Below, piece by piece: positions 8,887 through 62,852 of a DNA stretch of 64,000 bases. The position numbers and the translations under genes were made by a program. How positions within the stretch are numbered: the first letter of the stretch is position 1; each line of letters starts with the position of its first letter. The DNA comes from Paracoccaceae bacterium (GTDB taxonomy: Bacteria; Pseudomonadota; Alphaproteobacteria; Rhodobacterales; Rhodobacteraceae), in the NCBI GenBank assembly GCA_023383015.1, contig JAHDXW010000013.1:25281-89280 (forward strand), read 5' to 3'. The notes beneath the pieces are model-generated. The model searched no databases and was not told where the DNA came from. It worked only from the letters and a program-made list of their open reading frames with translations.

Positions 8887-9960
8887 TCAGCCGAAGCGGG
8901 CGGGCGACAGCGCGGCCACGGTCGCGGCGTCGAGGTCGGGCGCCCGCCCGGCGACAAGGTCGGCAAGCAGCCGGCTCGCGGCCGGGGCGGTCTGGAATCC
9001 GTAGCCGCCCTGTCCCGCGGCCCACAGGAACGCGGGCTCCGCCGGGTCGGGGCCGATCACCAGCACCCGGTCGGGGGCGAAGGTCCGCAGCCCCGCCCAG
9101 GAAGCCAGCAGCCGGGTGACCGGCGCCGCCGTCATCGCCTCGAACCGCGCCAGCCCCTCGGCCAGCACCATGTCGTCGGGGAAGGCGTCATGGGGCTCGG
9201 CGGGGTCCTCCTCGGCCGGCGAGACGATCAGCGCGCCGGCGTCGGGCTTGGCATACCAGCCCTCGCCCACCCCGAAGACCATCGGCCAGCCGCGGGCGTC
9301 GTGGCCGCCCGGAACGGCGATGCGCGCCATCGACCGCCGCAGCGGGGTGAAACCCAGCCGGCGCAGCCCGGCCAGAGCCGCCACCTCGTCCACCCAGGCG
9401 CCGGCGGCGTTGACGACCAGCCGCGCCTCGATCGTGCCGGCCGGCGTCGCGGCCGCCCAGCCCGGCCCGGTACGGGCCAGCGAACCGACGCGGGCGCCGG
9501 TCAGCACCCGCGCCCCGTTCGCCCGCGCCTCGCGCAGGAACGACTGCATCAGCCGGTCCGTATCGATGTCCCAGGCGTTCCGGCCCATGGCCGCGAACGC
9601 CACCGCCGCGGGCGAGAGCAGCGGCACCGCGGCCAGCGCCGCGGCGGCGGCGATCTCCTCCAGGCCCATGGCGGCGGCATCGTCCAGGAAGGCCGCGCGC
9701 TCGTCCTCGCGTCCGACCAGCATCAGCCCGCGGGGCGACAGCACCCCGCGGTCGTCGTGCTCGTCGCGACTGGCCCGGTTCAGCGCCCGTACCGCCGGCA
9801 GGCCGTAGCTCGCCTCGAACAGTGCCGCCGAGCGGCCCGAGGCGTGGTAGCCCAGCCGGTCCTCGGCCTCCGCCAGGACCACGGTGCCCAGATGCGACAG
9901 CCGGCCGGCCGCCGCCGCGCCGGCGATGCCGCCGCCGATCACCAGGAAATCCGCCGTCAT
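8887..9960 (-). CDS. FAD-dependent oxidoreductase (DadA / glycine oxidase-like)
   Basis: ORF 8887..9981(-), start at ATG 9960 (MTADFLVIGGGIAGAAAA). DAO-family layout throughout. Confidence 0.8.
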   Translation of the reverse strand: MTADFLVIGGGIAGAAAAGRLSHLGTVVLAEAEDRLGYHASGRSAALFEASYGLPAVRALNRASRDEHDDRGVLSPRGLMLVGREDERAAFLDDAAAMGLEEIAAAAALAAVPLLSPAAVAFAAMGRNAWDIDTDRLMQSFLREARANGARVLTGARVGSLARTGPGWAAATPAGTIEARLVVNAAGAWVDEVAALAGLRRLGFTPLRRSMARIAVPGGHDARGWPMVFGVGEGWYAKPDAGALIVSPAEEDPAEPHDAFPDDMVLAEGLARFEAMTAAPVTRLLASWAGLRTFAPDRVLVIGPDPAEPAFLWAAGQGGYGFQTAPAASRLLADLVAGRAPDLDAATVAALSPARFG

Positions 9961-10068
9961 CCCACACCCCGGCCCGCGCACGGGGCCGCCCCTTCCGCCG
10001 CCGCGGCACGCGCGCCGCGCGGCGGCCCCTGCACCGCCGCGCCGCCCGCGCCGGGCGAGGCTCTCGCC

Positions 10069-11142
10069 TCAGTTCGGGATCGCGCCCTCGATCCCCTCGA
10101 TGTAGAAGTTCATGCCGAGCAGCGTGCCGTCGTCGGCAACCTCGCCCGCGGCAAGCCACGGCGAGCCGTCCTGGCGGTTGATCGGGCCGGTGAACGGGTG
10201 GTAGCTGCCGTCCGAGATCGCCGCCACCATCGCCTCGGCCTCGGCGCGGACATCGGCGGGGATGCGGTCCGAGAAGGGCGACATCACCACCAGCCCCTCC
10301 TTCATGCCCTGCCACACGTCGGTGCTTTCCCAGCTGCCGTCGATCACCGCGCCGACGCGCTCGACGTAGTAGGGGCCCCAGTTGTCGATGATCGCGGTCA
10401 GCTGCGCGGTTGGGCCGAAGGCCTTCATGTCCGAGGCCTGGCCGAAGGCATAGATGCCCTTCTGCTCGGCGATGGCCATCGCCGCGGTCGAATCGGTGTG
10501 CTGCATGATGACGTCGGCGCCCTGTTCGATCAGCGCGTTGGCGGCATCGGCCTCGAGCGCGGGGTCGAACCAGGTGTAGGCCCAGACGACCTTGAACTGC
10601 ACGTCGGGGTTGGCCTTGCGGGCGTGCAGGAAGGCCGCGTTGATCCCCATGACGACCTCGGGGATCGGATAGGAGGCGATGTAGCCGACGACGTTGGTCC
10701 TCGTCATCTTGCCGGCGATGTGGCCGATCACCGCGCGCCCCTCGTAGAAGCGGGCGTTGTAGAGCGCCACGTTCGGATGCTCGCGCTTGTAGCCCGTCGC
10801 GTGCTCGAACTTCACGTTCGGGAAACGCGCGGCGACGTTGTTGATCGGATCCATGTAGCCGAAGGAGGTGGCGAAGATGATGTCGGCCCCCGCCAGCGCC
10901 ATCTGCGTCATCACCCGCTCGGCGTCGGCGCCCTCGGGCACACTCTCGACGTAGGTTGTCTCGACCTTGTCGCCGAAGTGCTCCTCGACCGCGAGGCGGC
11001 CGATGTTGTGCTCGTGCGACCAGCCGAAGTCGCCGATCGGGCCGACGTAGATGTAGCCCACCTTCGCCGGCTCGGCGGCTGCGGGCGCGGCAAGGGCAAG
11101 GGCCAGCACCGCCCCGGCCAGCAAGCGTGTCGTCGTCGTCAT
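10069..11142 (-). CDS. BMP family (purine/nucleoside-type) ABC transporter substrate-binding protein
   Basis: 357 aa with signal peptide MTTTTRLLAGAVLALALAAPAAA. The blocks KVGYIYVGPIGDFGWSHEH and QHTDS are typical of the Bmp/PnrA family. Confidence 0.9.
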   Translation of the reverse strand: MTTTTRLLAGAVLALALAAPAAAEPAKVGYIYVGPIGDFGWSHEHNIGRLAVEEHFGDKVETTYVESVPEGADAERVMTQMALAGADIIFATSFGYMDPINNVAARFPNVKFEHATGYKREHPNVALYNARFYEGRAVIGHIAGKMTRTNVVGYIASYPIPEVVMGINAAFLHARKANPDVQFKVVWAYTWFDPALEADAANALIEQGADVIMQHTDSTAAMAIAEQKGIYAFGQASDMKAFGPTAQLTAIIDNWGPYYVERVGAVIDGSWESTDVWQGMKEGLVVMSPFSDRIPADVRAEAEAMVAAISDGSYHPFTGPINRQDGSPWLAAGEVADDGTLLGMNFYIEGIEGAIPN

Positions 11143-11196
11143 GCACGTCTCCCCTCTTGGTCCGGGTCCGGCTCGGCCCGGCGGTTGGACTGCCGC

Positions 11197-12132
11197 TCAG
11201 CCGGCGGCGTGGAACGGCCGGCCAAGGGCCGCGGGCGCGTTCAGCGCCGCCCGCGTGCGATCGGCCGAGATGATCACAAGCACCACAATGGTCACGACGT
11301 AGGGCGACATGGCAAGATACTCGACCGGAATCTTCACCCCGGCCGCCTGCAGGTTCAGCTGCAGGACCGCGATGCCGCCAAAGAGCCAGGCGCCGAGCAG
11401 CACCCGCCACGGCCGCCAGGATGCGAACACCACGAGCGCGAGCGCGATCCAGCCGGCGCCGGCGGTCATGCCCTCGGTCCATTGCGGCACCCGCACCAGG
11501 CTCAGATGCGCTCCCCCGAGCCCCGCGCAGGCGCCCCCGAAGACCACCGCCGCCGCCCGCACCCGCCGCACCCCGAAGCCGAGGGCATGGGCGGCGTCGT
11601 GGCTTTCGCCCACCGCCCGCAGGATCAGCCCGGCGCGGGTGTAGCGCAGGAAGGCCCACACCCCGGCGACCAGCGCGAGGCCGGCATAGACCAGCACGTC
11701 ATGGGCGAAGAGCAGCCGGCCCGCCACCGGCAGATCCGTCAGCCCGGGCAGGTCCAGCCGCCCTGCCGGCGGCGGGCGGACGCCGATGTAGCCCTGCCCG
11801 ATCAGCGCCGAAAGACCGAGGCCGAACATCGTCAGCGCCAGCCCGGTGGCCACCTGGTTGGCCAGAAGCCCCAGCACCAGCAGCGCGAACAGGGCCGCCA
11901 GCGCCGCCCCCCCCGCCGCCGCGGCAAGCAGGCCGAGCCAGACATCGCCGGTGGCCACGGCCGCGGCGAAGCCGACCACCGCGCCAAGGATCATCATGCC
12001 CTCGACACCGAGGTTCAGCACGCCGGCCCGCTCGGCCACGAGTTCGCCGATCGCCGCCAGCAGGATCGGCGTCGACGCCACGATCAGCGCGGCGGCGACG
12101 GCGATCGGGTCGATGCCGGCCAGCCCGCTCAT
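11197..12132 (-). CDS. ABC transporter permease (BMP-type system)
   Basis: C-terminal 311 aa of ORF 11197..12867(-), starting at ATG 12132 (MSGLAGIDPI...). Multi-TM. ATGA overlap with the upstream permease stop. Confidence 0.9.
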   Translation of the reverse strand: MSGLAGIDPIAVAAALIVASTPILLAAIGELVAERAGVLNLGVEGMMILGAVVGFAAAVATGDVWLGLLAAAAGGAALAALFALLVLGLLANQVATGLALTMFGLGLSALIGQGYIGVRPPPAGRLDLPGLTDLPVAGRLLFAHDVLVYAGLALVAGVWAFLRYTRAGLILRAVGESHDAAHALGFGVRRVRAAAVVFGGACAGLGGAHLSLVRVPQWTEGMTAGAGWIALALVVFASWRPWRVLLGAWLFGGIAVLQLNLQAAGVKIPVEYLAMSPYVVTIVVLVIISADRTRAALNAPAALGRPFHAAG

Positions 12133-46474: not shown

Positions 46475-47137
46475 TCAGGGCTCGGCAACCCCGCCGAGGG
46501 CGGTGGCAAGCCGCAGGAAGGTGGCGCGCGCGGCGTAGAGATGGGTGGTCATCACCGCGTCGGCCCAGTCGGGGTCGCCGGCAGCGAACGCGGCCAGAAG
46601 CTCGCGGTGGTGCGACTGGCTGCGCTCCAGTTCCTCGGCCGTCCAGCCGCGGAAGGTCGGGCTGGTCAGCCGCCGGCGGGCCACCCCGCGGACCGCCGAC
46701 GAGGTGGCGCCGCTGCCCGACTGCGACAGGATCGCCCAGTGGAAATCCTCGTTGGCCTGCCGGTAGAGCCGAAGGTCGGGCTCGGGGCCGCAGCGCGCCG
46801 TCTCCATCCGCGCGATGCACTCGGCCAGCGCCTCCAGGAAGCGGCCGTCGACGCGGCTCGCGGCCAGCCGGGCCGCGAGCGGCTCGAGCCGCGCCCGCAC
46901 GATGAAGATGTCGACCACCGTGACCGGGTTCACCTCGGCGAGGTGGACGCGCCGGTTGGCCCGCCGCTCGACGATGCCCTCGGCCTCGAGCCGCTTCAGC
47001 GCCTCGCGCACCGGTGTCCGGCTGACCTGCAGCCGCTCGGCCAGCCCCTCCTCGGGCATGGCGTCGCCGGCGATGTAGACGCCCTCGAGGATCAGCCCGC
47101 GGATGCGCTCGTAGACGTCGTCCCTGCGCGGGGTCAC
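46475..47137 (-). CDS. GntR family transcriptional regulator (FadR/FCD subfamily)
   Basis: GTG at 47137 within ORF 46475..47512(-). HTH block LAERLQVSRTPVREALKRLEAEGIV followed by an all-helical FCD domain. Confidence 0.85.
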   Translation of the reverse strand: MTPRRDDVYERIRGLILEGVYIAGDAMPEEGLAERLQVSRTPVREALKRLEAEGIVERRANRRVHLAEVNPVTVVDIFIVRARLEPLAARLAASRVDGRFLEALAECIARMETARCGPEPDLRLYRQANEDFHWAILSQSGSGATSSAVRGVARRRLTSPTFRGWTAEELERSQSHHRELLAAFAAGDPDWADAVMTTHLYAARATFLRLATALGGVAEP

Positions 47138-47166
47138 GCCCGCGGCTCCTGCTGACGGGGCTCCAT

Positions 47167-48348
47167 TCAGTGCAGGCCCCGCGCGGCCATCCACGCCAGC
47201 ATGTGGCGGGCCGCCTCGTCCAGATGTCCGGGCTGGCCGACGAAGTAGTGGTTGGCCCCCTCGACGCGCAGCATGCTCTTGTCGCGGCTGCCGATGGCGG
47301 CGTGGATGAGCGTCGTGTGCGGCTGCGGCACGGCATCGTCGGCGCCGCACTCGATCGCCAGGAACGGCACCGAGACCGAGGATCCCCACCGCAGGCTGTC
47401 GGCAAGCGAATCGTCGTGCGACCACTGCGACAGCCAGCTCCGCAGCGTCGAGAACCGCGCCAGGCCGACGGGGCCGCTGTTCACCGTCTCGGGATGGCCG
47501 AGGTAGCACCACATCGGCTTGCGTCCGTTGGGGTCGATGGCGGTGTCGAGCCAGCGCGGGTCGGCCATCGTCCGGTATGTGACGAAGCCGCGCTCGACCT
47601 CGGCGCCGCCGCGCCGGCGCAGCGTCTCCAGCGTCTCGTGCACGCGCGCGGTGATGCGGCGGATGCGCGCCAGCTGTGCCTGGCGGTAGGCGGCAAGGAA
47701 GCCTGCCTCATAGCGCGGCGCCGTGTCGGCATAGCCGGGCCGGTAGAGGTCGAGCGCGGGGTCGCGGTCGTCGGGGTCGTTCTCGTCGCGCACCGAGGGG
47801 TCGATCCACTCCGACAGCACCTTGGCGCGCGAGTGATGCGCCGCGAGGCTCAGCAGTGCGTCGGCCGGAACAAGGCCCGCGCCGGGAATGTCGACAGGGT
47901 CGCCCGCCGGCGTCCTGGTGACGCTCGGCCGTTCGGCCTGCGCCTGGTAGTAGCAGGCCAGCGAGCCGCCGCCGCTCCAGCCGCACAGCACGACCTTCTC
48001 GTATCCCCACTCGTCCCGGGCGGCGCGGATGTAGGCGCCGAGGTCGACCAGCACGTTCTCCATGATCAGGGCGGTGTCGTTGCGCTGGTAGCGGCTCCCG
48101 GCGGCCAGCACATGGCAGCCCATCGCTGCCAGCCGGTTCGGCAGCGGCAGCAGCTGAAGCGTCGAGGCGGGGTGCATGAACACCAGAAGCGTCCGGCTCG
48201 CGTGCCCTTCCGGGTGCAGGAGCACGCCCTCGAGGTTGACCGCCCCCTGGCTTCCCGAGAACCCGTAGGTCTCCGTGAAGGCCGCCGGATTGCGGAACGC
48301 GATGTGCTTCCAGCTCCGGATGACGGGGTAGGTGGGGGTCTCGGTCAT
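47167..48348 (-). CDS. alpha/beta hydrolase of unknown specificity
   Basis: 393 aa. Nucleophile elbow GWSGGG, with a candidate acid (GADDAVP) and His (GANHYF). ATGA overlap with the upstream ATPase stop. Confidence 0.75.
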   Translation of the reverse strand: MTETPTYPVIRSWKHIAFRNPAAFTETYGFSGSQGAVNLEGVLLHPEGHASRTLLVFMHPASTLQLLPLPNRLAAMGCHVLAAGSRYQRNDTALIMENVLVDLGAYIRAARDEWGYEKVVLCGWSGGGSLACYYQAQAERPSVTRTPAGDPVDIPGAGLVPADALLSLAAHHSRAKVLSEWIDPSVRDENDPDDRDPALDLYRPGYADTAPRYEAGFLAAYRQAQLARIRRITARVHETLETLRRRGGAEVERGFVTYRTMADPRWLDTAIDPNGRKPMWCYLGHPETVNSGPVGLARFSTLRSWLSQWSHDDSLADSLRWGSSVSVPFLAIECGADDAVPQPHTTLIHAAIGSRDKSMLRVEGANHYFVGQPGHLDEAARHMLAWMAARGLH

Positions 48349-52464: not shown

Positions 52465-54096
52465 TCAGCCCGGCGGCATGTGCAGACGGCCCGACGCATT
52501 CCAGCCGTAGCCGGCCTCGCGCAGGATCGCGCGCGCCGCCTCGACGTCGAAGGCGATCTGCTCCAGCGCGGCGTTGTACCACCGCCCGAGCACCCGCGGC
52601 ACCGGCCCCTCGGAGGCGGGGATGCCGAAGCCCTGCCAGCCCTCGATCACCACCCGCTGCTTGTTGCTCGCCGTGCGCAGCGCCATCCGGAAAGCGCGGT
52701 CGCTGAACGGCGCCTTCTGGTTGTTCAGCCAGACGAACATCGTCGAATGCGACGGCACCTCGATGAACTCCAGGAAGTCGTTCTGCCGGGCGAGGTCGTC
52801 CATCGTCGCGACCGGCAGCACCGTGGTGGCGATGTCGCCGGTGCCGTCCAGCATCGCGGCGCGGATCGCGTCGGCCTGCCCCAGCGCCAGCCGGCGCAGC
52901 CCGTCATAGGCCGGCGGGTTGAAGTGCGCGGGGAAGGCGGCCAGCTCGTGCACCTCGTTCACCCGCCAGGCCTGGAACCGGAACGGGCCGCTGCCGATCA
53001 CCTTGCCGGCGGCCACGATGTCCCATTCGAGGGCGTTCTCGGGGGCGTCCTTCCAGATGTGCTCGGGCAGGATGAACAGGTAGGTCAGCACGGTGATCTC
53101 GAAGGCCGCGTCCGGATCCTTGAGCAGGATGCGGAAGGTGCGGTCGTCCACCTTCTCGGCGCCGGCAAGGTTGCGGGTGCGCGCCGACATCGCCGGCGGC
53201 TGCCAGGCGATGACCTGCTGGATCGTGAACACCGCGTCGTCGGCGGTGACCGGCTCGCCGTCGTGGAAGGTCATGCCGTCGCGCAGCGTCACCTCCACGG
53301 TGCGCTCGTCGATCCACTGCCAGGACGCCGCCGCCCAGGGCACGGTCTCGCCGCGGGAGTTGTTCTTGGCGAAGGTGTCGAAGACGAAGCGCAACCACCC
53401 CACCGCGCCTTCCTCCGACAGCGGGTTGTAGGTGCTGACGTCCTCGAAGTAGGCCCAGTCCAGCCAGCGGTCGTCGGTCAGCGGGCGGGCTGCCAGCCAG
53501 GGGTTGACCAGTTCCTCATGCGCCGCCACCGGCTCGGGGCTGGTGACGTTCTCCCACTTCGCGCTGTTGTAGAGGATGCCGTAGGTGCGGTTGATCACCG
53601 GCCAGAACGGCATCTCCCCGACGAACATCGCCTGCAGCTCGTGCACCGCTGCCAGCCGCTCCTCGGTGCTGATGATCGACCGCTGCGCCACCGCCTTGGC
53701 CGAATAGGCCTCATCGCACCATTTGGATCCGTTGCGCCGCTGGCCGCAGGCGGCGATGTCATGCACCCAGTAGGCCGGGTCGACCCGGTCGGGGTCGGCG
53801 CCGACCGTGAACACGGCGATGTCCTCGAGCTGGCCGCCGACGATGAACTGCGACACGAAGGTCGAGAACTGGACCGGCACAAGCTGAAGCGAGATGCCGA
53901 GCTTCGCCCAGTCGTCGGCCAGGGCGCGGGCCGACTGTTCGAACTCCGGCCCCATGTCGGCCGCGTAATAGACCACCCGGAGCTCCGGCACCGGCTCGCC
54001 CAGCTGCTGGGCCACGCCGGCCCCTCCGGCCAGCAGGCCGACGAGACCCGCAATGCCTCCCGCTGGCAACAGCCGTCGCCAGGTCAATCCTTCCAT
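52465..54096 (-). CDS. family-5 (Opp/Dpp-type) ABC substrate-binding protein with circularly permuted segment order
   Basis: 543 aa from ATG 54096 (GGAGGA lies 7 nt upstream) within ORF 52465..54720(-). Tat-like leader TWRRLLPAGG...AQQ. All SBP_bac_5 blocks are present, but the usual C-terminal third comes first (see findings). Confidence 0.85.
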   Translation of the reverse strand: MEGLTWRRLLPAGGIAGLVGLLAGGAGVAQQLGEPVPELRVVYYAADMGPEFEQSARALADDWAKLGISLQLVPVQFSTFVSQFIVGGQLEDIAVFTVGADPDRVDPAYWVHDIAACGQRRNGSKWCDEAYSAKAVAQRSIISTEERLAAVHELQAMFVGEMPFWPVINRTYGILYNSAKWENVTSPEPVAAHEELVNPWLAARPLTDDRWLDWAYFEDVSTYNPLSEEGAVGWLRFVFDTFAKNNSRGETVPWAAASWQWIDERTVEVTLRDGMTFHDGEPVTADDAVFTIQQVIAWQPPAMSARTRNLAGAEKVDDRTFRILLKDPDAAFEITVLTYLFILPEHIWKDAPENALEWDIVAAGKVIGSGPFRFQAWRVNEVHELAAFPAHFNPPAYDGLRRLALGQADAIRAAMLDGTGDIATTVLPVATMDDLARQNDFLEFIEVPSHSTMFVWLNNQKAPFSDRAFRMALRTASNKQRVVIEGWQGFGIPASEGPVPRVLGRWYNAALEQIAFDVEAARAILREAGYGWNASGRLHMPPG

Positions 54097-54460
54097 CGTT
54101 CCATCCTCCCCCATGCAATGCACGCAGCCACCGGCAGCGCGATCGCGCCACGTTCCTGCCGGCGCCGATCCCGACATGATTGTATGCGTTTTCTGATCCG
54201 TCAATCGTCGGAATCGCCATCTGGTCCGCCAGCCAGTCCGGCCGGGCCGGAGCCGGCGCGGGCTCCCTCCGCTTCCCGCGCGCGGATGTTTGTCATTTGA
54301 TGGCAATGATTTGCCGGAATGTCCGGCTGCCCGTCCGCAGCCGTCTTCCTCTGCCTGGCCGGTCCCCGGCCTGTCCGCAGGCGCCCGGCGCTTTACAGCC
54401 TGCGATCTTTTGTATTCACTTTGCCGCGGAATCGCCCGGCTGCAGTGAAGGGGAGGACCG

Positions 54461-55741
54461 ATGGAGGCGAGCTGGATCGACAGCGCCGAAGCGCCGGGGA
54501 CGGACTTTCCGCTCGCGAACCTGCCGCTCGGGGTCATGCGCACGGGCCGCGGCGCGGCCTGCGTGTCGGCGATCGGCGACCGCATCGTCGATCTGGCGCT
54601 GCTCGAGCGGGCGGGGCTTGTCGATGCCGGCGGCGGCGGCCCGGTCTTCGACGGCCCGGCGCTCAACGACTTCATCGCCCTCGGCCCGCCGGCGTGGGAG
54701 CGGCTGCGCGCCCAGCTCACCGGGCTGCTCGCTGCCGCCGGGCGGCCGGCGCTGCGCGACGATCCCGACCTCCGCCGCCGCGCCCTGCCGCCGCTCGCCG
54801 GGGCGACGATGCTGATGCCCGTGCGGGTGGCCGGCTACACCGACTTCAACGGCGCCCGCCAGCACGCCTTCAACGCCGGCTCGATCCTGCGCGGGCCCGA
54901 CCGGGCGCTGCCGGCAAACTGGCTGCACATGCCCATCGCCTACAACGGCCGCGTCTCGACCGTCTGCGTCTCGGGCACGCCGATCCGCCGTCCGCTCGGG
55001 CAGTTCCTGCCCCAGGGCGGGGAGCGTCCGGTGTTCGGCCCCAGCCGCCGGCTGGATTTCGAGCTCGAGCTCGGCACCATCCTCGGCGTGCCCTCGCGCA
55101 TGGGCGAGCCCCTGTCGGTGGCCGAGGCCGACGCGATGATCTTCGGCCATGTCCTGCTGAACGACTGGTCGGCGCGCGACATCCAGGCCTGGGAGACGGT
55201 GCCGCTCGGCCCCTTCCTGGGCAAGGCCTTCGGCACCTCGATCAGCCCCTGGGTGGTCACCCGCGCGGCGCTCGAGCCGTTCCGCATCCGCGGGCCCGAG
55301 CCAGAGCTGCCGCTCTTGCCCTATCTCCACGCCACCGCGCCGCTGCACCACGACATCGCGCTCGAGGCCGCGCTCGTTACAGCGGGCGCCGCCGACGAGG
55401 CGGTGATCGTGCGCACCAACACGCGCCATCTCTACTATGCCCCGGCGCAGATGCTGGCCCAGCACGCCATCGGCGGCTGCCGGATGGATGTCTGCGACCT
55501 GATCGGCAGCGGTACCGTCTCCGGTCCCGACCCGTCCTCCTGGGCCTGCCTGCTCGAGATCACGCGCGGAGGGCGCGAGGCGCTGCAGGTGGCGGGCCTG
55601 CGCCGCACCTACCTCGAGGACGGCGACACCGTGGTCATCCGCGGCGCCGCCACGCGCGACGGGCGGCGCATCGGCTTCGGCGAATGTCGCGGCACGATCC
55701 TTCCCGCCCCGCCGCACCCCGCCGGCGGCGCGGGCGGCTAG
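54461..55741 (+). CDS. fahA: fumarylacetoacetase (FAH family)
   Basis: 426 aa preceded by GGGGAGGA. FPLANLPLGV, YTDF, MPIAYNGR, DFELELG and NDWSARDIQ.WE are typical of fumarylacetoacetase. Confidence 0.9.
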   Translation: MEASWIDSAEAPGTDFPLANLPLGVMRTGRGAACVSAIGDRIVDLALLERAGLVDAGGGGPVFDGPALNDFIALGPPAWERLRAQLTGLLAAAGRPALRDDPDLRRRALPPLAGATMLMPVRVAGYTDFNGARQHAFNAGSILRGPDRALPANWLHMPIAYNGRVSTVCVSGTPIRRPLGQFLPQGGERPVFGPSRRLDFELELGTILGVPSRMGEPLSVAEADAMIFGHVLLNDWSARDIQAWETVPLGPFLGKAFGTSISPWVVTRAALEPFRIRGPEPELPLLPYLHATAPLHHDIALEAALVTAGAADEAVIVRTNTRHLYYAPAQMLAQHAIGGCRMDVCDLIGSGTVSGPDPSSWACLLEITRGGREALQVAGLRRTYLEDGDTVVIRGAATRDGRRIGFGECRGTILPAPPHPAGGAGG

Positions 55742-55908: not shown

Positions 55909-57126
55909 ATGTCGCATCCCTTCAGCATCATCGCCAAGCCGATCGGCCCGCGCTGCAACATCGACTGCCGCTACTGCTACTATCTCGAGAAGGAGCGCCT
56001 TTACCCCGACACCGGCCGCTTCCGGATGCCCGACGCGGTCCTCGCCCGCTATGTCGAGGACTACATCGCCGCGCAGGAGGCCGCCGGGCTGGCCGAGGTC
56101 ACCTTCTTCTGGCAGGGCGGCGAGCCCACCATCCTCGGCATCGACTTCTTCCGCCGGGTGCTGGCGCTGCAGTCCGCCGCGGCGGGCCGCGGAACGGTGG
56201 TGCGCAACGCGCTACAGACCAACGGCACGCTGATCGACGCCGACTGGGCGGCCTTCCTTGCCGACGGCGGCTTCCTCGTCGGTCTCTCGATCGACGGCCC
56301 GCGCCCCCTGCACGACCGCTACCGGCGCGACCGTGCCGGGCGGCCGACCTTCGATGCCGCGCTGCGCGGGCTCGGGCATCTTCTGGCCGCCGGGGTCGAG
56401 ACGAACATCCTGACCGCCGTCCACCGCGCCAACGTCGTCCGCCCGCGCGAGGTCTACGGCTTCCTGCGCGGGCTCGGCTGCCCGTTCCTGCAGTTCATCC
56501 CGATCGTCGAGCGCGCCGCCCCCTCCGGCGGCGGGCTGTCGCAGTCGCCGCCGCCCGGGGGGGGCGGCGATCCGGCGGTCACCGAATGGAGCGTCGCGCC
56601 CCTCGCCTGGGGTCGCTTCCTGTGCGAGGTCTTCGACCAGTGGTACCGCCACGACGCCGGGCGGATCTCCGTGCAGTTCTTCGATGTCCAGCTCGGCCTG
56701 TGGTCGGGCGGGCCGGCGGGGCTCTGCGTCTTCGCCGAGGAGTGCGGCGGCTGCCTCGCGCTCGAGCACAACGGCGACCTCTACGCCTGCGACCACTATG
56801 TCTATCCCGCCTACCGGCTCGGCAACGTCATGGACGAGGGGCTCGCGGCGATGGCCGCCAGCCCCGCCCAGCGGGAGTTTGGGGCGATGAAGTCGGCGGC
56901 GCTGCCGGCCCGCTGCCGCAACTGCCGCTTCCGCTTCGCCTGCAACGGCGGCTGCCCCAAGCACCGCTTCGCCCGCTGCCCCGACGGCGAGCCCGGCCTC
57001 AACCACCTCTGCGAGGGCTACCGGCGGTTCTTCCACCACGCCGGCCCGCGGCTGGCCGGCATGGCCCGGCGCATCGCCGCCGGGCTGCCGCCCCTTCCCG
57101 CCGCCCCGCCCGAGGCCCGCCCCTAG
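55909..57126 (+). CDS. anaerobic sulfatase-maturating enzyme (radical SAM / SPASM)
   Basis: 405 aa. KPIGPRCNIDCRYCYY radical-SAM CX3CX2C motif. C-terminal SPASM Cys clusters (CVFAEECGGC, YACDH, CRNCRFRFACNGGCPKHR). Confidence 0.9.
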   Translation: MSHPFSIIAKPIGPRCNIDCRYCYYLEKERLYPDTGRFRMPDAVLARYVEDYIAAQEAAGLAEVTFFWQGGEPTILGIDFFRRVLALQSAAAGRGTVVRNALQTNGTLIDADWAAFLADGGFLVGLSIDGPRPLHDRYRRDRAGRPTFDAALRGLGHLLAAGVETNILTAVHRANVVRPREVYGFLRGLGCPFLQFIPIVERAAPSGGGLSQSPPPGGGGDPAVTEWSVAPLAWGRFLCEVFDQWYRHDAGRISVQFFDVQLGLWSGGPAGLCVFAEECGGCLALEHNGDLYACDHYVYPAYRLGNVMDEGLAAMAASPAQREFGAMKSAALPARCRNCRFRFACNGGCPKHRFARCPDGEPGLNHLCEGYRRFFHHAGPRLAGMARRIAAGLPPLPAAPPEARP

Positions 57127-57142: not shown

Positions 57143-58360
57143 TCACGCCGCGAGCGCTAGAACCGCCCCCGCCGCCGCGGCGAAGGCCACCACCGCCCAG
57201 GGCGGCGCCTTCCAGCCCGTCAGCAGAACGAAGCAGGCCACCGCCAGCGCGAACTCGGCCGGTCCCCGCACCGCCGAGGTGAACACCGGCGACCACAGCG
57301 CCGTGCCGAGGATGCCCACCACCGCGGCATTGGCCCCCTGCATCGCCGACTGCGCCCGCCGCAGGCGGCGGAAGGCGTCCCAGAAGGGCAGAACCCCGAC
57401 CAGCACCAGAAAGCCCGGCAGGAACAGGGCCAGAAGCGCCAGCGAGGCACCCGCCGCCCCGGCCGGCCCCGGCGACAGGACCGCGCCCAGATAGGCCGCG
57501 AAGGTGAACAGCGGCCCCGGCAGCGCCTGCGCCGCCCCGTAGCCGGCCAGGAAGGCATCCCGCGTCGCCCAGCCCGGGCCGACCACCGCCGCCTCGAGCA
57601 GCGGCAGCACGACATGGCCGCCGCCGAACACCAGCGCCCCGGCCCGGAAGAAGGCCTCCGCCACCGCCAGCGCCTGGCCCGCCGCCGCCAGCACGGGCAG
57701 CGCCACCAGCAGCAGCGCGAAAAGCCCCAGCGCCGCGGCCCCGGTGCGCGGCGCCACCGCCACCGCCACCGGCGCCCCTCCGCTGGCTGCCCCGCGGCCC
57801 AGCGCCAGCCCCGCCAGGCCGCCCGCGAGGATCGCCGCCACCATCCCCGCCCCCCCGGGCAGCAGCGCCAGCACCGCCACCGCGCCGGCGGCGATGCTTG
57901 CCCGGGCCGGGTCGGGGCAGAGGCTGCGCGCCATGCCCCAGACCGCCTGCGCCACGATCGCCACCGCGACGATCTTCAGCCCCTGCAGCGCACCCAGCCC
58001 CGCGGGGTGGTCGATTCGCGCCGCGGTCAGCGCAAACCCCAGCATGATCAGCGCCGAGGGCAGGGTGAAGCCGGCGAACGCCGCGACCGCACCCGCCCAG
58101 CCCGCCCGCATCATCCCCAGCGCGAAGCCCGCCTGGCTGGAGGCCGGACCGGGCAGGAACTGGCAGAGTGCCACGAGATCGGCATAGGCCTGGTCGGTCA
58201 GCCAGCGCCGCCGCGTCACCAGCTCGTCGCGGAAATAGCCCAGATGCGCCACCGGCCCCCCGAACGAGGTCAGCCCCAGCCTCAGGAACACCGCGAACAC
58301 CTCGCCGGCGCTGCCCCGTCGCCCCGCCGCCCCGGCGCCGCCGCCTGCCTGCCCGTCCAT
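57143..58360 (-). CDS. chrA: chromate efflux transporter (two CHR domains)
   Basis: ATG at 58360 preceded by GGAGGGG, within ORF 57143..58504(-). FLRLGLTSFGGPVAHLGY...QFLPGPASSQ, with a second repeat FRAGALVFGGGHVVLPLL...QALPGPLF. Confidence 0.9.
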   Translation of the reverse strand: MDGQAGGGAGAAGRRGSAGEVFAVFLRLGLTSFGGPVAHLGYFRDELVTRRRWLTDQAYADLVALCQFLPGPASSQAGFALGMMRAGWAGAVAAFAGFTLPSALIMLGFALTAARIDHPAGLGALQGLKIVAVAIVAQAVWGMARSLCPDPARASIAAGAVAVLALLPGGAGMVAAILAGGLAGLALGRGAASGGAPVAVAVAPRTGAAALGLFALLLVALPVLAAAGQALAVAEAFFRAGALVFGGGHVVLPLLEAAVVGPGWATRDAFLAGYGAAQALPGPLFTFAAYLGAVLSPGPAGAAGASLALLALFLPGFLVLVGVLPFWDAFRRLRRAQSAMQGANAAVVGILGTALWSPVFTSAVRGPAEFALAVACFVLLTGWKAPPWAVVAFAAAAGAVLALAA

Positions 58361-58394
58361 CGTGCCCCTCCGGTTCCGCCCGCCCCCCGCCTTC

Positions 58395-59381
58395 TCAGCG
58401 CGGATGCGGGTCCCAGGCAAGGCGGAAGCCCAGATGCCCGGTCGCGCTGTCGGGCGGCAGGCCCAGCCGCGCGGCCACCCGGTAGCGGTGGCAGTAGCTC
58501 GCATGGCAGAGGTAGCTTCCGCCCTTCATCACCCGCTGCCCCTCGGCCCGGGCGGCGGCGTTGCGCGCCTGCGCCGGCCGCGCGAGCGACCGGATGCGGA
58601 AGGGGTCGGCGCACCACTCCCAGACGTTGCCCGCCATGTTGTGCAGCCCGTAGCCGTTTGGCGCGAAGCTCAGCGCCGGGGCGGTGCCGCGCCAGCCGTC
58701 GGCGCCGGTGTCGTGGTCGGGAAAGCGGCCCTGCCAGATGTTGCAGGGCAGGAAGCCCGTGTCATCGGGCGGCTGCCCGCCCCAGGGATAGGGACCATCG
58801 CCGCCGCCGCGGGCGGCATGCTCCCACTCCGCCTCGACCGGCAGCCGCGCCCCGGCCCAGGCGGCGAAGGCGGTCGCGTCGTTCCACGAGACATGCACCA
58901 CGGGATGCGCCTCGCGGCCCAGGATGCTGCTGCCCGGCCCCTCGGGGGCGTGCCACGCGGCCCCCGGCACCCCCGCCCACCACGGCGCCACCACCGAGGG
59001 CGGCAGCCGCGCCGCCTCGGCGGCGGGCAGGAAGCCGCGGAACACGAACGACCAGCCGATCCGCTCGGCCTCGGTCACATGGCCGGTGGCGGCGACGAAG
59101 GCGGCAAAGCGCGCGTTGGTCACCGCGCCGCGGTCGATGCCGAAGGGGGCAAGCCGCACCGTCCGCCGCGGCCCCTCGCCGTCGGCGCCAAAGAGCGGCC
59201 GGTCGGTGCCGACATGGCTTGCCCCCCCGGCAAGCCAGACCACCTCCCCGCCCTCTGCCGCAGCCGCAGCCGCAGCCGCAGCCGCAGCCGGTGCCCGGGG
59301 CGGGGCAGGGGCGGCCTTGGCCCGCGGCGGCGGCGGCGCGCCGGCCCGGCCGGGCGCGCAGCAGCCGCCGTCAGTGCCCAC
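58395..59381 (-). CDS. formylglycine-generating enzyme (SUMF1/FGE family)
   Basis: ORF 58395..59408(-). Carries [20 protein letters not shown] and the copper-binding [15 protein letters not shown]. Start is uncertain: TTG 59408, GTG 59381, or GTG 59243 (good GAGGG spacing, which would remove the Pro/Ala-rich N-terminus). Confidence 0.88.
59257..59290. repeat. hexanucleotide microsatellite, (GCCGCA) about 5.7 copies
   Basis: Counted directly. On the minus strand it reads (GCTGCG)5, giving an 11-Ala run in the long FGE reading frame. Confidence 0.9.
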
Positions 59382-60282
59382 CGCGCTCCACCCGCTGGCG
59401 CGGATCAAGAACGTCCCGCAGCCCGTCGCCCATCAGGTTCAGCCCCAGCACCGCCACCGCGATGACGATGCCGGGGAAGACGGCGATCCACCACGCCTCC
59501 TGGATGTAGCTTCGCCCGTCGGCGATGATGTTGCCCAGCGACGGCGCCGGCGGCGGCGGCCCGACGCCAAGGAAGGACAGGATCGCCTCGGCGATGATCG
59601 ACACCGCGAAGACGAAGGTCAGCTGCACGATCAGCGGCGACAGCGCGTTGGCCAGGATGTAGCGGAAGACGATGCGGCCGTGGCCGGCGCCCACCGCATG
59701 GGCGGCCTCGATGTACTGCATCCCCTGCACGACCAGCACGCTCGCCCGCACGATCCGCGCCGTCCGCGGCGTGAAGGTCACCGTTAGCGCGATGATGGCG
59801 TTGGTCTCCGACGGCCCCAGCGCGGCCGCCAGCGCGATCGCCAGCAGGACGCCCGGAAAGGCCATCAGCCCGTCCAGCCCGCGCATGATCAGCCCGTCCA
59901 GCCAGCGGACATAGCTGGCCAGCGTGCCGAGCAGCGTGCCGAACACCCCCACCATCGCCACCACCCACAGCCCGATGGTCAGCGACACGCGGGTGCCGTG
60001 CAGGATGCGGCTCAGGATGTCGCGGCCGAAGCCGTCGGTGCCGAACCAGTGCGCCGCCGAGGGCGGGGCCAGGATCGCGCGGTAGTCGATCTTGGTCGGC
60101 GCGTAGGGGGCGATGCGGTCGGCCAGCAGCGCGGTGGCGGCGAAGGCCGCCAGGATGACGAAGCCGATCAGGAACGAGGGATGGCCGAACAGCCGCCGCA
60201 GGAAGGCCGCCCGCCGCCGGCGGCGGGCGCGCGCGATCTCGGCGGCCAGCGACAGAGGTGCGGGGGCGGCCTCAGCGGCCAT
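59371..60282 (-). CDS. ABC transporter permease (DppC/OppC-like)
   Basis: ATG at 60282 within ORF 59371..60336(-). Overlaps the upstream permease stop by 11 nt. Contains [11 protein letters not shown] and [21 protein letters not shown]. Confidence 0.9.
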
Positions 60283-61219
60283 CGCGCACCCGCGGGTCAA
60301 ACCAGCCGTACAGCATGTCGACGATGATGTTGACAAAGACGAAGACGCAGGCCGTCACCAGAAGCCCGCCCTGGATGATCGGGAAGTCGCGGCGCTGGAT
60401 CGCGCCGACGATCAGCCGCCCCACCCCGGGCAGCGAGAAGACGGTCTCGATCACCACCGCCCCCGACAGCAGGATCCCCGTCAGCACCCCGACGACGGTG
60501 ACGATCGGGACCATCGCGTTGCGCAGCGCATGGCGGAAGACCACGGTGCCGCGCGGCATGCCCTTGGCGCGGGCGGTGCGGACATAGTCCTGCCCCAGCA
60601 CGTCCAGCATCGACGAGCGCGTCATCCGCGCGATCACCCCCATCTGGGTCAGCGCCAGGGTCATCGCCGGCAGGGTCATGCTGCGGGCCCAGCCGAGGGG
60701 GTCGTCGGTCAGCGCCACGAAGCCGCCGGTCGGCAGCCACCCCAGCCACACCCCGAACAGGATGATCAGCACGATGCCGAACCAGAAGTCGGGGATCGAC
60801 AGCCCGATCAGCGCCGTCACCATCGCCCCCTGGTCGGCCAGCGTGTTGTGGCGCACCGCCGCGAGGATGCCCAGCATCAGCCCCATCACCGTCGCCAGGA
60901 CCAGCGCGAGCCCGGCCAGCGACAGCGTCACCGGCAGCCGCTCGAGTACCGCATCCAGCACCGGCCGCTGCAGGAGGTAGGAGTATCCGAGGTCGCCGCG
61001 GAAGAGGTCGCCGTACCAGGCCAGCGCCCGCTCCCACAGCGGCCGGTCAAGCCCCAGCCGCCGGCGGATCGCCTCCAGCTCCTCGGGGGTCGCGTCGGTG
61101 CCGCCAAGCTCGGCCGAGATGTCGCCGGGCACCAGCCAGATCAGCAGGAAGGTGACCAGCGACACCACCAGGAGCACCGGCACCGCGCTGAGGATGCGCG
61201 TGATCAGGAAGCGGGTCAC
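60272..61219 (-). CDS. ABC transporter permease (DppB/OppB-like)
   Basis: GTG at 61219 ((M)TRFLITRILSAVPVLL...) within ORF 60272..61507(-). Contains YVRTARAKGMPRGTVVFRHALRNAMVP. Confidence 0.9.
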   Translation of the reverse strand: MTRFLITRILSAVPVLLVVSLVTFLLIWLVPGDISAELGGTDATPEELEAIRRRLGLDRPLWERALAWYGDLFRGDLGYSYLLQRPVLDAVLERLPVTLSLAGLALVLATVMGLMLGILAAVRHNTLADQGAMVTALIGLSIPDFWFGIVLIILFGVWLGWLPTGGFVALTDDPLGWARSMTLPAMTLALTQMGVIARMTRSSMLDVLGQDYVRTARAKGMPRGTVVFRHALRNAMVPIVTVVGVLTGILLSGAVVIETVFSLPGVGRLIVGAIQRRDFPIIQGGLLVTACVFVFVNIIVDMLYGWFDPRVRDGR

Positions 61220-61283
61220 GGCCGGCGATTCCGTTCGGCAGGCGCCGGCGCGCCGCCGGCCGGCCGGCGGGCGGCGCGGGCGC

Positions 61284-62852
61284 TCATTGCTCGAACCAGA
61301 CGTTGTACATCCGCGGAATCCGGAACGGCACGTAGCCGCGGACGTTCGACCGCGTGGCCTCCATCTTTCCCCAGTCGCCGATCTTGATGATCGGAAAGCT
61401 CTCGTAGAGGTAGGCCTGAGCCCGCCGGAACGTCTCCTGCCGCGCCTCCACCGTCGGCCCGTTGGCCAACTCGCGGAAAAGCGCGTCGATCTGCGGGTCG
61501 GGGGCAAGAAACAGCGGCTGGGCGCCGGTCATCGTTGCCAGCGTGTCGACGGGGCCGAAATAGGGCGCTGCACCCATCTGCCCGGTGGTCAGGTGCCAGC
61601 CCTCCGGACGGCGGCGCAACTCCAGCACCGTCGGCTGGTCGAACTGGCGGATCACCACGTTGATACCGGCGGCGCGCAACTGCTGCTCGGCCACCACGGC
61701 GGTGCGGATGTTCTGCTGGCTCGCCGTGTCGGTCACCAGGATCACCTCCTCGCCGGCATAGCCGGCCCGGGCGAGAAGCTCGGCGGTGCGCGCAAGGTCG
61801 GAGCGGTTGTAGCGGTCGCGCCCGACCTCGCCGGGATCGTAGGTGCTGCCCCGGTACTGCCAGCGGTGGTTGAGATCAAAGAGGCCCTCGCCGACGATGG
61901 CCATGATCTCCTCCATGTTCAGCGCCGCCTGCACCGCCTCGCGGAAGTCGCGGTTGGCGCCGGGGCCCGCGGCGGTGTTGAAGATCAGCACCGTGAAGGC
62001 CCATGGCATGTTCTCGTGCACGACGATGGCGTCGCTGCCGGCGAGACGGCGGCCCGAGGGAACGCCGATCCGCTCCAGCACATGCACCTCGCCGGCCTCG
62101 AGGGCGGCGACCTGCGCGCCCGGGTCGGGCATGATGCGGAACACCACCTCGTCGAAATGCGGCGCCTTGCGGCCGCCGAAGCCGTCGCTGCCCGCATAGC
62201 GCGTGTCCTCGGCGTAGTCCTCGAAGCGGGCGAGGCGGACATGGCTGTCGGGCACGTACTCCACCAGCCGGTAGGGCCCAGTTCCGACCATGCTAATGCG
62301 CCCGACCTCGGCCGCGGCGTCCTCCTCGGGGATGATCACCACCGGGGCGCGCGGCGAGGCGAACGCCTCCAGGAACATCGGCGTCCTTGCCGACAGCCGC
62401 AGCGTGACCTCGTGATCTCCCGTCACCTCGACGCTTTCCACCGGCGCGAGCAGCGACTTCGTGGCCCCGACCCGGCGGTAGCGCTCGATCGAGGCGCGGA
62501 CGTCGCGGGCCGTCATTTCCTTGCCGTTGTGGAACCGCACGCCCTGACGCAGGGTGAAGACATAGCTCAGCCCGTCGTCCGAGATGGCGACGCCCTCGGC
62601 AAGCTGGGGGATCGGCGCGATCGTCTCGCTGTAGGCGTAGAGGGTCTCGTAGATGTGCATGGTGATGTTGCGCGCCGCCTCGGCGGCGGTCGCCATGCCG
62701 TCGAGCGTCGGCGGGTTCGCCGCCTGGGCAACCACCACCGTGCCGCCGCGCTGCTGGCCCGAGACCGCGCCGGGAAGGGTGCAGGCCAGCAGGGCCGTGG
62801 CGACCGCCGCCACCAGCCTGAGGGGGGTGCGCAGACCGAGGGAGGGGATCAT
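61284..62852 (-). CDS. family-5 ABC substrate-binding protein (canonical order)
   Basis: ATG at 62852 within ORF 61284..62918(-). Signal peptide ends AVSGQQ. Canonical SBP_bac_5 layout. Confidence 0.9.
   Translation of the reverse strand: MIPSLGLRTPLRLVAAVATALLACTLPGAVSGQQRGGTVVVAQAANPPTLDGMATAAEAARNITMHIYETLYAYSETIAPIPQLAEGVAISDDGLSYVFTLRQGVRFHNGKEMTARDVRASIERYRRVGATKSLLAPVESVEVTGDHEVTLRLSARTPMFLEAFASPRAPVVIIPEEDAAAEVGRISMVGTGPYRLVEYVPDSHVRLARFEDYAEDTRYAGSDGFGGRKAPHFDEVVFRIMPDPGAQVAALEAGEVHVLERIGVPSGRRLAGSDAIVVHENMPWAFTVLIFNTAAGPGANRDFREAVQAALNMEEIMAIVGEGLFDLNHRWQYRGSTYDPGEVGRDRYNRSDLARTAELLARAGYAGEEVILVTDTASQQNIRTAVVAEQQLRAAGINVVIRQFDQPTVLELRRRPEGWHLTTGQMGAAPYFGPVDTLATMTGAQPLFLAPDPQIDALFRELANGPTVEARQETFRRAQAYLYESFPIIKIGDWGKMEATRSNVRGYVPFRIPRMYNVWFEQ

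Follow-up and report, generated by a model that had tools for sequence, protein, structure and literature searches.

Evidence for a circularly permuted family-5 substrate-binding protein at the head of a Dpp/Opp-type ABC operon in a Paracoccaceae bacterium

The stretch of DNA studied here, referred to as the window, comprises 64,000 nucleotides of a Paracoccaceae bacterium (assembly GCA_023383015.1, contig JAHDXW010000013.1, positions 25,281 to 89,280). On its minus strand, between positions 52465 and 54096, lies a gene whose product of 543 amino acids (aa) is homologous to the family-5, or cluster C, substrate-binding proteins (SBPs) of ATP-binding cassette (ABC) importers, with the two parts of the fold in swapped order. 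We are highly confident that this product is a functional, exported SBP of a Dpp/Opp-type importer whose chain represents a clean circular permutation of the cluster C fold (Pfam SBP_bac_5, PF00496). It represents a real, conserved and widespread permuted subfamily of a well-known family and not a new kind of system. With less assurance, although on balance we favor it, we propose that this subfamily is the first recognised class of permuted cluster C (Opp/Dpp/Nik-type) SBPs, which could be called ‘cluster Cc’. Such a class would be large and old, extending over many phyla and the haloarchaea, with the contiguous lobe inverted and both the chain ends and the tether located on lobe 2.

An original prediction, made from the letters of the window and their open reading frames (ORFs), had described the protein as circularly permuted and had quoted sequence blocks in the changed order; all of these blocks are present in the translation as described. 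It had also expected two out-of-order partial matches to PF00496 instead of a single collinear one, and this is what the profile comparison gave. The protein scores 176.6 bits (cutoff 32.4) in two out-of-order stretches, the best of which aligns residues 251-536 with positions 2-284 of the 368 in the profile. A sequence search of the PDB with the permuted protein returned 81 family members at E<=0.01. In the case of E. coli DppA (1dpp), residues 250-531 of the permuted protein correspond to DppA 45-341 and residues 49-156 to DppA 358-464. The window also holds a canonical family-5 paralog (61284-62852) that had been put forward for direct comparison: it indeed shows a single collinear PF00496 match, and as a relative it is distant, with 23% identity to the permuted protein over 240 aa.

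Profile comparisons in both directions gave the same picture. A permuted-family profile built from 55 members matches canonical proteins as two out-of-order domains, the second domain with independent E-values (iE) of 2.8e-25 and 2.4e-16. In the case of the canonical protein P0113, profile positions 223-547 match residues 72-407 (iE 6e-70) and positions 51-189 match residues 421-557 (iE 2.8e-25); taken over the canonical proteins, this latter part of the profile matches stretches that start at 355 or 421 and end at 468 or 557. In the reverse direction, positions 363-501 of a canonical profile match residues 27-171 of the permuted protein (iE 1.7e-12), and positions 54-359 match residues 227-533 (iE 1.2e-66). 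Altogether, two segments, A after the leader and B up to the C-terminus, are each significantly homologous to family 5, stand in swapped order and jointly span the whole fold. Judged by these alignments, the out-of-order homology is far beyond chance. NCBIfam contained no specific model for the protein, giving just partial, far sub-threshold matches to the Opp4A, NikA, GsiB and DppA models.

The position of the break and of the junction was obtained by aligning canonical proteins to the doubled sequence of the permuted protein. In this test, residues 41-514 of the canonical protein P0263 formed a single collinear domain (140 bits, iE 4e-45) that begins at residue 214 of the permuted protein, crosses the C-terminus and extends to residue 181, and P0113 showed the same behavior. 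The artificial C-to-N junction is ungapped against P0263 (...AGYGWNASGRLHMPPG followed by LGEPVPELRVVYY; that is, ...HMPPG followed by LGEPVPEL...), the alignment text reading ...AGYGWN-ASGRLHMPPG followed by LGEPVPELRVVYYAAD... at this point. Since there is no gap at this junction, the break is placed in the loop after the AARAILREAGY helix, with the mature N-terminus abutting the C-terminus exactly. Segment B terminates in the loop that follows this helix, and the canonical alignment picks up again at L32, just past the leader. At the junction of the ancestral termini, the old C-terminal stretch ...NPWLAARPL is followed by about 4 residues (TDDR) and then by the old first strand WLDWAYFEDV (WLDWAYFEDVSTYNPL). 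The original prediction had let the old N-terminal block appear only around residue 250; by the doubled-sequence alignment to P0263, it begins instead at about 208-214 (DDRWLDWAYFEDVSTYNPL). Its further claim, that of a clean circular permutation and not a rearranged pseudogene, is upheld by the ungapped junction against P0263, the intact ORF and the conservation across genomes described below.

Structural modelling agreed with the sequence comparisons. The AlphaFold2 model of the permuted protein, computed from the family alignment, reached a mean predicted local distance difference test score (pLDDT) of 92.4 and a predicted template modelling score (pTM) of 0.87, with disorder only in residues 1-23. 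Foldseek comparison of this model with the PDB returned cluster C proteins only (AppA, NikZ, DppA, OppA, YliB and others), with a probability of 1.0. These alignments, which are order-dependent, covered 335-383 columns of the permuted model with query template modelling scores (TMq) of 0.41-0.52. As a control, a model of the canonical protein P0114 (pLDDT 81) was compared with the same PDB entries and aligned over 468-513 columns with a TMq of 0.68-0.84, mostly at least 0.77, a range that omits one non-crystallographic OppA model. Because the less confident P0114 model aligns further, the shortfall of the permuted model can be attributed to its chain order and not to low model quality or divergence. 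Compared with the P0114 model, the helices and strands of the permuted model come in a cyclically shifted order, with the canonical series E344-350 to E463-476 corresponding to E39-44 to E164-177. No solved structure that is collinear over the full length or has the permuted order was found in the PDB by sequence or by Foldseek, and order-dependent tools (Pfam, NCBIfam and Foldseek) cover only two-thirds of the permuted protein.

In the canonical topology, lobe 1 is made up of the N-terminal part and a short C-terminal tail and lobe 2 is contiguous; moreover, the N- and C-termini of oligopeptide-binding proteins lie close together in domain I (PMC10924461). This adjacency of the termini is a precondition for permutation, and the linker between them here is of about 4 residues. 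In the rewired protein, the chain would start after the signal peptide with the lobe 2 strand that canonically follows the ‘...AGY..dG..’ loop. The second half of lobe 2 would be formed by residues ~32-170, after which the old C-terminal strand would lead through the hinge into lobe 1. After about 4 residues the chain would enter the old N-terminal strand, and lobe 1 as a whole (domains I and II) would follow contiguously over residues ~170-455. A second hinge crossing would then lead into the first half of lobe 2 (~455-543), so that the end of the chain meets its start in lobe 2. Segment A would in this way hold the second half of lobe 2 and the C-terminal return into lobe 1, and segment B would hold lobe 1 together with the first half of lobe 2. 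Thus, lobe 1 would be continuous and lobe 2 split, the reverse of every solved member, with the number of hinge crossings remaining at two. The new ends are predicted to fall near DppA mature residue 345-357, within a loop of lobe 2, with the old ends fused, which would put the chain ends on lobe 2 instead of lobe 1. In the ~40% of members with a lipobox, including Gram-positive and archaeal ones, the lipid anchor would probably be on lobe 2 as well. This mapping is based on the domain limits of DppA.

The gene itself reads from an ATG at 54096 to a stop at 52465-52467. A good ribosome-binding site, an intact ORF and a complete ABC operon headed by this gene had all been claimed, and rightly: the Shine-Dalgarno sequence GGAGGA lies 7 nucleotides (nt) upstream of the ATG, the ORF is uninterrupted, and a complete DppBCDF-type set lies downstream. 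A longer ORF of 751 aa, which reaches 54720, was considered as the true gene and ruled out, because the starts of the orthologs match 54096 and the Shine-Dalgarno sequence belongs to that start; the additional part overlaps the divergent promoter region. NCBI lists the exact protein under the accession MCL4188008.1 with the label ‘hypothetical protein’; it comes from a Rhodobacteraceae/Paracoccaceae metagenome-assembled genome and is present on 14 contigs. In the leader, which had been called twin-arginine translocation (Tat)-like, we could identify by inspection the RR pair and a Gly/Ala-rich hydrophobic core, the Tat consensus itself being only partial. Cleavage would be expected after AQQ. 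At the position of the leader, relatives of the protein have a signal peptide, a Tat-like motif or a lipobox; a crude regular expression detected the Tat-like RR motif in 107 and the lipobox in 104 of 248 permuted members. In comparison with the three closest orthologs, the ratio of nonsynonymous to synonymous substitution rates (dN/dS) lies at 0.14-0.25, with similar values for segments A and B. Both segments are under purifying selection.

The permuted order is shared by many relatives. About 110 full-length homologs with 27-100% identity were found to have it. In a family-profile scan of 1.84 billion cluster representatives (50%-identity clusters), about 125,880 representatives match the permuted-family profile at E<=0.001; among the best 150, which were inspected and whose E-values are still ~1e-112 at the end of the list, about 140 show a single-stretch, collinear, full-length match to the permuted profile. 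Conservation of the permuted order in a clade, which the original prediction had proposed to check, was likewise seen in 268 fetched proteins, of which 248 are permuted and full-length (identities from 100% to ~25%), 9 canonical, 8 fragments and 3 multi-module giants. Since the C-termini of the permuted members lie a median of 1 residue past the last profile position, the break point is conserved.

At the genome level, the permuted gene was located at 80 loci of species-representative genomes, which include complete chromosomes and plasmids. These loci belong to Alpha- and Gammaproteobacteria, Bacillota, Chloroflexota, Synergistota, Acidimicrobiia, Trueperaceae, Spirochaetota, SAR324, Desulfobacteraceae and Halobacteria, with Actinomycetota and Deinococcota among the phyla represented. 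Plasmid records with the permuted gene come from Ketogulonicigenium, Neorhizobium, Haladaptatus and Haloferax. In the case of Haloferax volcanii DS2, the permuted order was verified for HVO_RS00095 on pHV3 (WP_004041133.1; locus L081, 6782-8650), which has a lipobox. This gene is the first of an ABC operon that precedes the pentose (xac) catabolic cluster by a few genes, and a literature search with the Haloferax locus tags turned up only the neighboring xylose cluster. One ortholog with 79% identity and an alphaproteobacterial-type operon stands in a metagenome-assembled genome labelled ‘Verrucomicrobia bacterium’ (L003; contig of 5895 bp, coverage 0.05), which probably reflects a binning error or a recent transfer. 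Several permuted members are annotated as ‘hypothetical protein’ (e.g. GI374_08870, FNJ84_02100, ASC75_06800, VW29_02195 and KJZ85_10385), and the permutation may be the cause of this failure of order-dependent naming.

Regarding the origin of the permuted order, the members, once de-permuted, group as a single clade apart from 10 canonical sequences in a distance tree that has no independent outgroup root, and the nearest canonical proteins are identical for both segments, namely P0263 and then P0113. Although sampling is thin, these sequence relationships suggest that the permuted form arose once, out of a single canonical lineage. In the model that we favor, a canonical gene would have undergone tandem duplication and in-frame fusion, once, and would then have lost the 5' two-thirds of the first copy, the internal signal peptide and the 3' third of the second copy; this textbook route would yield precisely the arrangement observed. 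The fetched proteins also contain giants with 4-5 or more head-to-tail family-5 modules, P0200 (2843 aa), P0220 (2754 aa) and P0212 (4308 aa). By eye, P0200 has a regulator-like N-terminus (BTAD/ATPase/TPR-like) followed by five modules, and P0220 has four modules. Such multi-module fusions resemble the intermediate needed by the duplication model. The tandem canonical genes of the window (61284-62852 and 63063 to beyond 64000) were considered as the source of the permuted gene and rejected as too distant, at the 23% identity over 240 aa noted above. The original prediction had brought them in as evidence for this route; being only distantly related to the permuted gene, they can serve as an illustration only.

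It is also conceivable that the permutation is real and that its pieces come from two different SBP genes, one contributing the C-terminal third and the other the N-terminal two-thirds. A mixed origin of the permuted part was raised by the authors of TpMglB-2, a permuted binding protein discussed below (PMC4990184), and in our data the scores of the two segments over 9 canonical proteins show a rank correlation of only 0.6 (p = 0.09). However, both segments are nearest to P0263 and then to P0113, the break and the junction are ungapped against a single canonical protein, and divergence and dN/dS are alike for both segments; we regard an origin from two genes as unlikely. Very unlikely, in our judgement, is that the permuted order is ancestral for the branch, or that canonical forms derive from permuted ones. 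The lack of an independent outgroup in the distance tree leaves room for this, as does the depth of the family, in which some permuted pairs are as far apart from each other as from canonical proteins. On the other side, canonical proteins by far exceed permuted ones in number and diversity, and most of the ~125,880 matches are expected to be canonical; every solved structure that was found is canonical, and the permuted set is one clade with one common break point.

As for function, a permease gene of the DppB/OppB type directly follows the permuted gene in 77 of the 80 loci, mostly with the full BCDF set. The protein is most likely an ordinary Venus-flytrap binding protein that serves its own Dpp/Opp-type importer. 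A small ligand would bind between the lobes in Venus-flytrap fashion and would be handed to the DppBC-like permeases, with the DppDF-like ATPases as power. SBPs are also known to serve signalling and to evolve into enzymes (PMC8050422, PMC7683729), so the protein could in principle be a periplasmic sensor, a chemoreceptor partner or an SBP-derived enzyme instead of a transport component. This appears highly improbable, given that the directly adjacent permease, mostly within a full permease-ATPase set, is found across phyla, and that no signalling domain is fused to the protein or adjacent to it in the window. Finally, the chance is negligible that an assembly join or a rearranged pseudogene has fused the 3' end and the 5' part of neighboring tandem SBP genes: tandem family-5 genes do occur in the window and the tandem canonical modules of P0200 do match the permuted profile across module boundaries, but the same order and chain ends recur in the 248 retrieved proteins, the ORF is intact, with a Shine-Dalgarno sequence and a putative signal peptide, both segments are under purifying selection, the AlphaFold model is one compact fold (pLDDT 92), and the presence of the same architecture in 80 independent genomes, including complete chromosomes and plasmids, excludes misassembly.

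Several points weigh against the reading of the protein as a clean permutant of single origin that serves a peptide-type importer. The structural claim is built on an AlphaFold model, order-dependent Foldseek comparisons and one control. That the new termini lie close together, and which lobe each stretch belongs to, would follow from a sequence mapping onto the DppA/YejA domain boundaries. The tree that points to a single origin is a distance tree with only 10 canonical sequences. Among the members with long C-terminal tails or N-terminal heads, no 1.5-copy or partly trimmed intermediate was found; the tails are short, acidic or unrelated and are not remnants of the missing block, and the heads are linkers or mis-called starts. 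Lastly, R383 and D436 (precursor numbering) are peptide-binding residues of DppA (PMC12136057), and the position of the DppA Arg, which binds a carboxylate, appears to be Ala in the permuted protein, the alignment of that loop being ambiguous. As this Arg is apparently not conserved, the substrate may not be a peptide.

The coordinates of the gene, its parts and its neighbors are collected in Table 1.

Table 1. Features of the permuted gene and its surroundings in the window, with the basis of each assignment.
Feature	Position	Strand	Basis
Permuted family-5 (cluster C; Opp/Dpp/Nik-type) substrate-binding protein, complete gene	52465..54096	-	ORF, translation, PF00496
Shine-Dalgarno sequence GGAGGA, 7 nt 5' of the ATG at 54096	54104..54109	-	Direct sequence reading
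Export signal, residues 1-31 (MEGLTWRRLLPAGGIAGLVGLLAGGAGVAQQ)	54004..54096	-	Inspection
Segment A, residues 32-205, equivalent to the last third of canonical proteins	53482..54003	-	DppA, family-profile and canonical-profile matches
Segment B, residues 206-543, equivalent to the first two-thirds of canonical proteins	52468..53481	-	DppA and PF00496 matches
Junction of the ancestral termini, residues ~199-213	53458..53502	-	Doubled-sequence alignment to canonical P0263
DppB/OppB-type permease, 324 aa	51406..52380	-	BPD_transp_1 and BPD_transp_1_N
DppC/OppC-type permease, 297 aa	50505..51398	-	OppC_N and BPD_transp_1; synteny
DppD-type ATPase, 360 aa	49421..50503	-	ABC_tran and oligo_HPY; synteny
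DppF-type ATPase, 368 aa	48345..49451	-	ABC_tran and oligo_HPY; synteny
Alpha/beta-hydrolase-like protein, 393 aa, co-oriented at the operon end	47167..48348	-	Weak Hydrolase_4 match
GntR/FCD-family regulator, ORF of 345 aa as listed	46475..47512	-	GntR and FCD domains; syntenic in orthologous loci
Fumarylacetoacetase, divergent	54461..55741	+	TIGR01266, 477 bits (cutoff 375); FAA_hydrolase N and C domains
Canonical family-5 paralog, internal comparator	61284..62852	-	Single collinear PF00496 match, residues 80-441 to profile 2-360

Beyond the transporter genes, the operon takes in the hydrolase and the regulator; these two and the divergent fumarylacetoacetase accompany it in related genomes. 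The hydrolase is kept downstream in about 19 orthologous loci, and the fumarylacetoacetase is found divergent upstream in about 18. Together with the regulator, both are retained in orthologs at identities of at least ~56%, the synteny of all three with the permuted operon being seen in Paracoccus, Devosia, Stappia, Aminobacter, Acuticoccus and Aureimonas. The true start of the GntR/FCD regulator is probably internal to the listed ORF. For the hydrolase (47167-48348), the searches for its identity yielded only weak Hydrolase_4 and weak lactonase matches, and no PDB relative was found by sequence. The three syntenic neighbors suggest a dedicated catabolic locus, and a catabolic ligand tied to the neighboring hydrolase, fumarylacetoacetase and GntR regulator is possible.

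A different arrangement was observed in a distant permuted branch (~30% identity). In Halomonas salipaludis (L057), the OppC-type permease at 9655-11391 has 578 aa, of which ~330 are inserted behind the first transmembrane helix (OppC_N, 15-49) and ahead of the permease core (394-575); this inserted part shows a weak beta-propeller-like match (PSII_BNR, E 5.5e-4). The DppC of the window is normal in this respect, with 297 aa. The same spacing is present at L040, L043-L045, L049, L050, L052, L057-L060, L064, L065, L067, L068, L070, L072-L074 and L078-L080. Within the proposed ‘cluster Cc’, the OppC insertion of this branch would be periplasmic.

Elsewhere in the window, the tandem canonical family-5 genes (61284-62852 and 63063 to beyond 64000, both on the minus strand) lie upstream of a second DppB/DppC permease pair (60272-61300 and 59371-60336), which is followed by an FGE-sulfatase-like gene (58395-59408) and then by one for a chromate transporter (57143-58504). 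ATPase genes were not observed among the tandem SBP genes, the second permease pair and the sulfatase-like and chromate-transporter genes. Near the FGE-sulfatase-like gene, a radical SAM and SPASM protein resembling anaerobic sulfatase maturases is encoded at 55909-57126 on the plus strand, and the region with these two genes may be sulfatase-related.

If the proposed class is confirmed, the shift of the tether and the chain ends to lobe 2 could alter the folding order, the tether geometry or the docking to the translocator. The permuted members can be regarded as a natural experiment on the influence of chain connectivity, hinge mechanics and tether position on Venus-flytrap closure and on docking to the translocator, and the Haloferax volcanii member makes genetic tests feasible. 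The tolerated split site in lobe 2 could be used in biosensor design and in split or permuted protein engineering on a cluster C scaffold. On the annotation side, the permutation would account for the partial Pfam matches, the lack of a specific NCBIfam model and some of the ‘hypothetical protein’ labels, for which a family-specific profile would be the remedy. The observations should therefore be of interest to those working on ABC transporters, on protein topology and evolution, and on the engineering of binding proteins.

Cluster C SBPs are among the most studied components of ABC transporters, with ligands that include peptides, nickel, opines, haem and oligosaccharides. The permuted protein shares with the canonical members (DppA 1DPP, OppA, B. 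subtilis AppA 1XOC, NikA/NikZ and YejA) homology across the whole mature protein, the fold elements recognised by Foldseek, a putative N-terminal export signal, and OppB/OppC-type permeases with two oligo_HPY ATPases. It differs from them in its cyclically shifted chain order and lacks their canonical topology. Natural permutants such as the DNA methyltransferases and saposin/swaposin are thought to have arisen by duplication and end-trimming. With these textbook cases the present protein would have in common adjacent ancestral termini, a single break in a surface loop, a retained fold and a monophyletic permuted clade. The difference is that the duplication route is here a model, for which the multi-module canonical fusions P0200 and P0220 are the only related forms found.

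As the original prediction had supposed, no description of a circularly permuted family-5 protein was found in 8 million open-access papers and preprints, the scope of our search, in which only TpMglB-2 and engineered biosensors came up; a prior description in subscription journals is possible. TpMglB-2 of Treponema pallidum was the only natural precedent of a permuted ABC binding protein that we found. This protein (Tp0684) is the founding member of the permuted ‘Type Ic / Cluster Bc’ ligand-binding proteins (PMC4990184). Like the protein described here, it is a natural permutation whose moved segment is missed by sequence searches; TpMglB-2 has retained the bilobed fold and ligand binding, and its homologs form a family with a common topology, many of them lipid-tethered (PMC4990184). 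The two differ in their family: TpMglB-2 is a sugar-binding protein of cluster B / type I, whereas all sequence and fold matches of the permuted protein are to family 5 / cluster C and none to MglB / cluster B. They also differ in the rearrangement itself. In TpMglB-2, the first three strands of the N-lobe have moved to the C-terminal end, and the chain needs to cross the hinge a fourth time (PMC4990184); in the permuted protein, the break would lie inside lobe 2 and two crossovers would suffice. Furthermore, the moved segment of TpMglB-2 is 13% identical to its counterpart (PMC4990184), whereas here the similarity to canonical proteins is significant for both segments. As this would be a second, independent natural permutation among ABC binding proteins, topological rewiring may be commoner in this group than has been thought.

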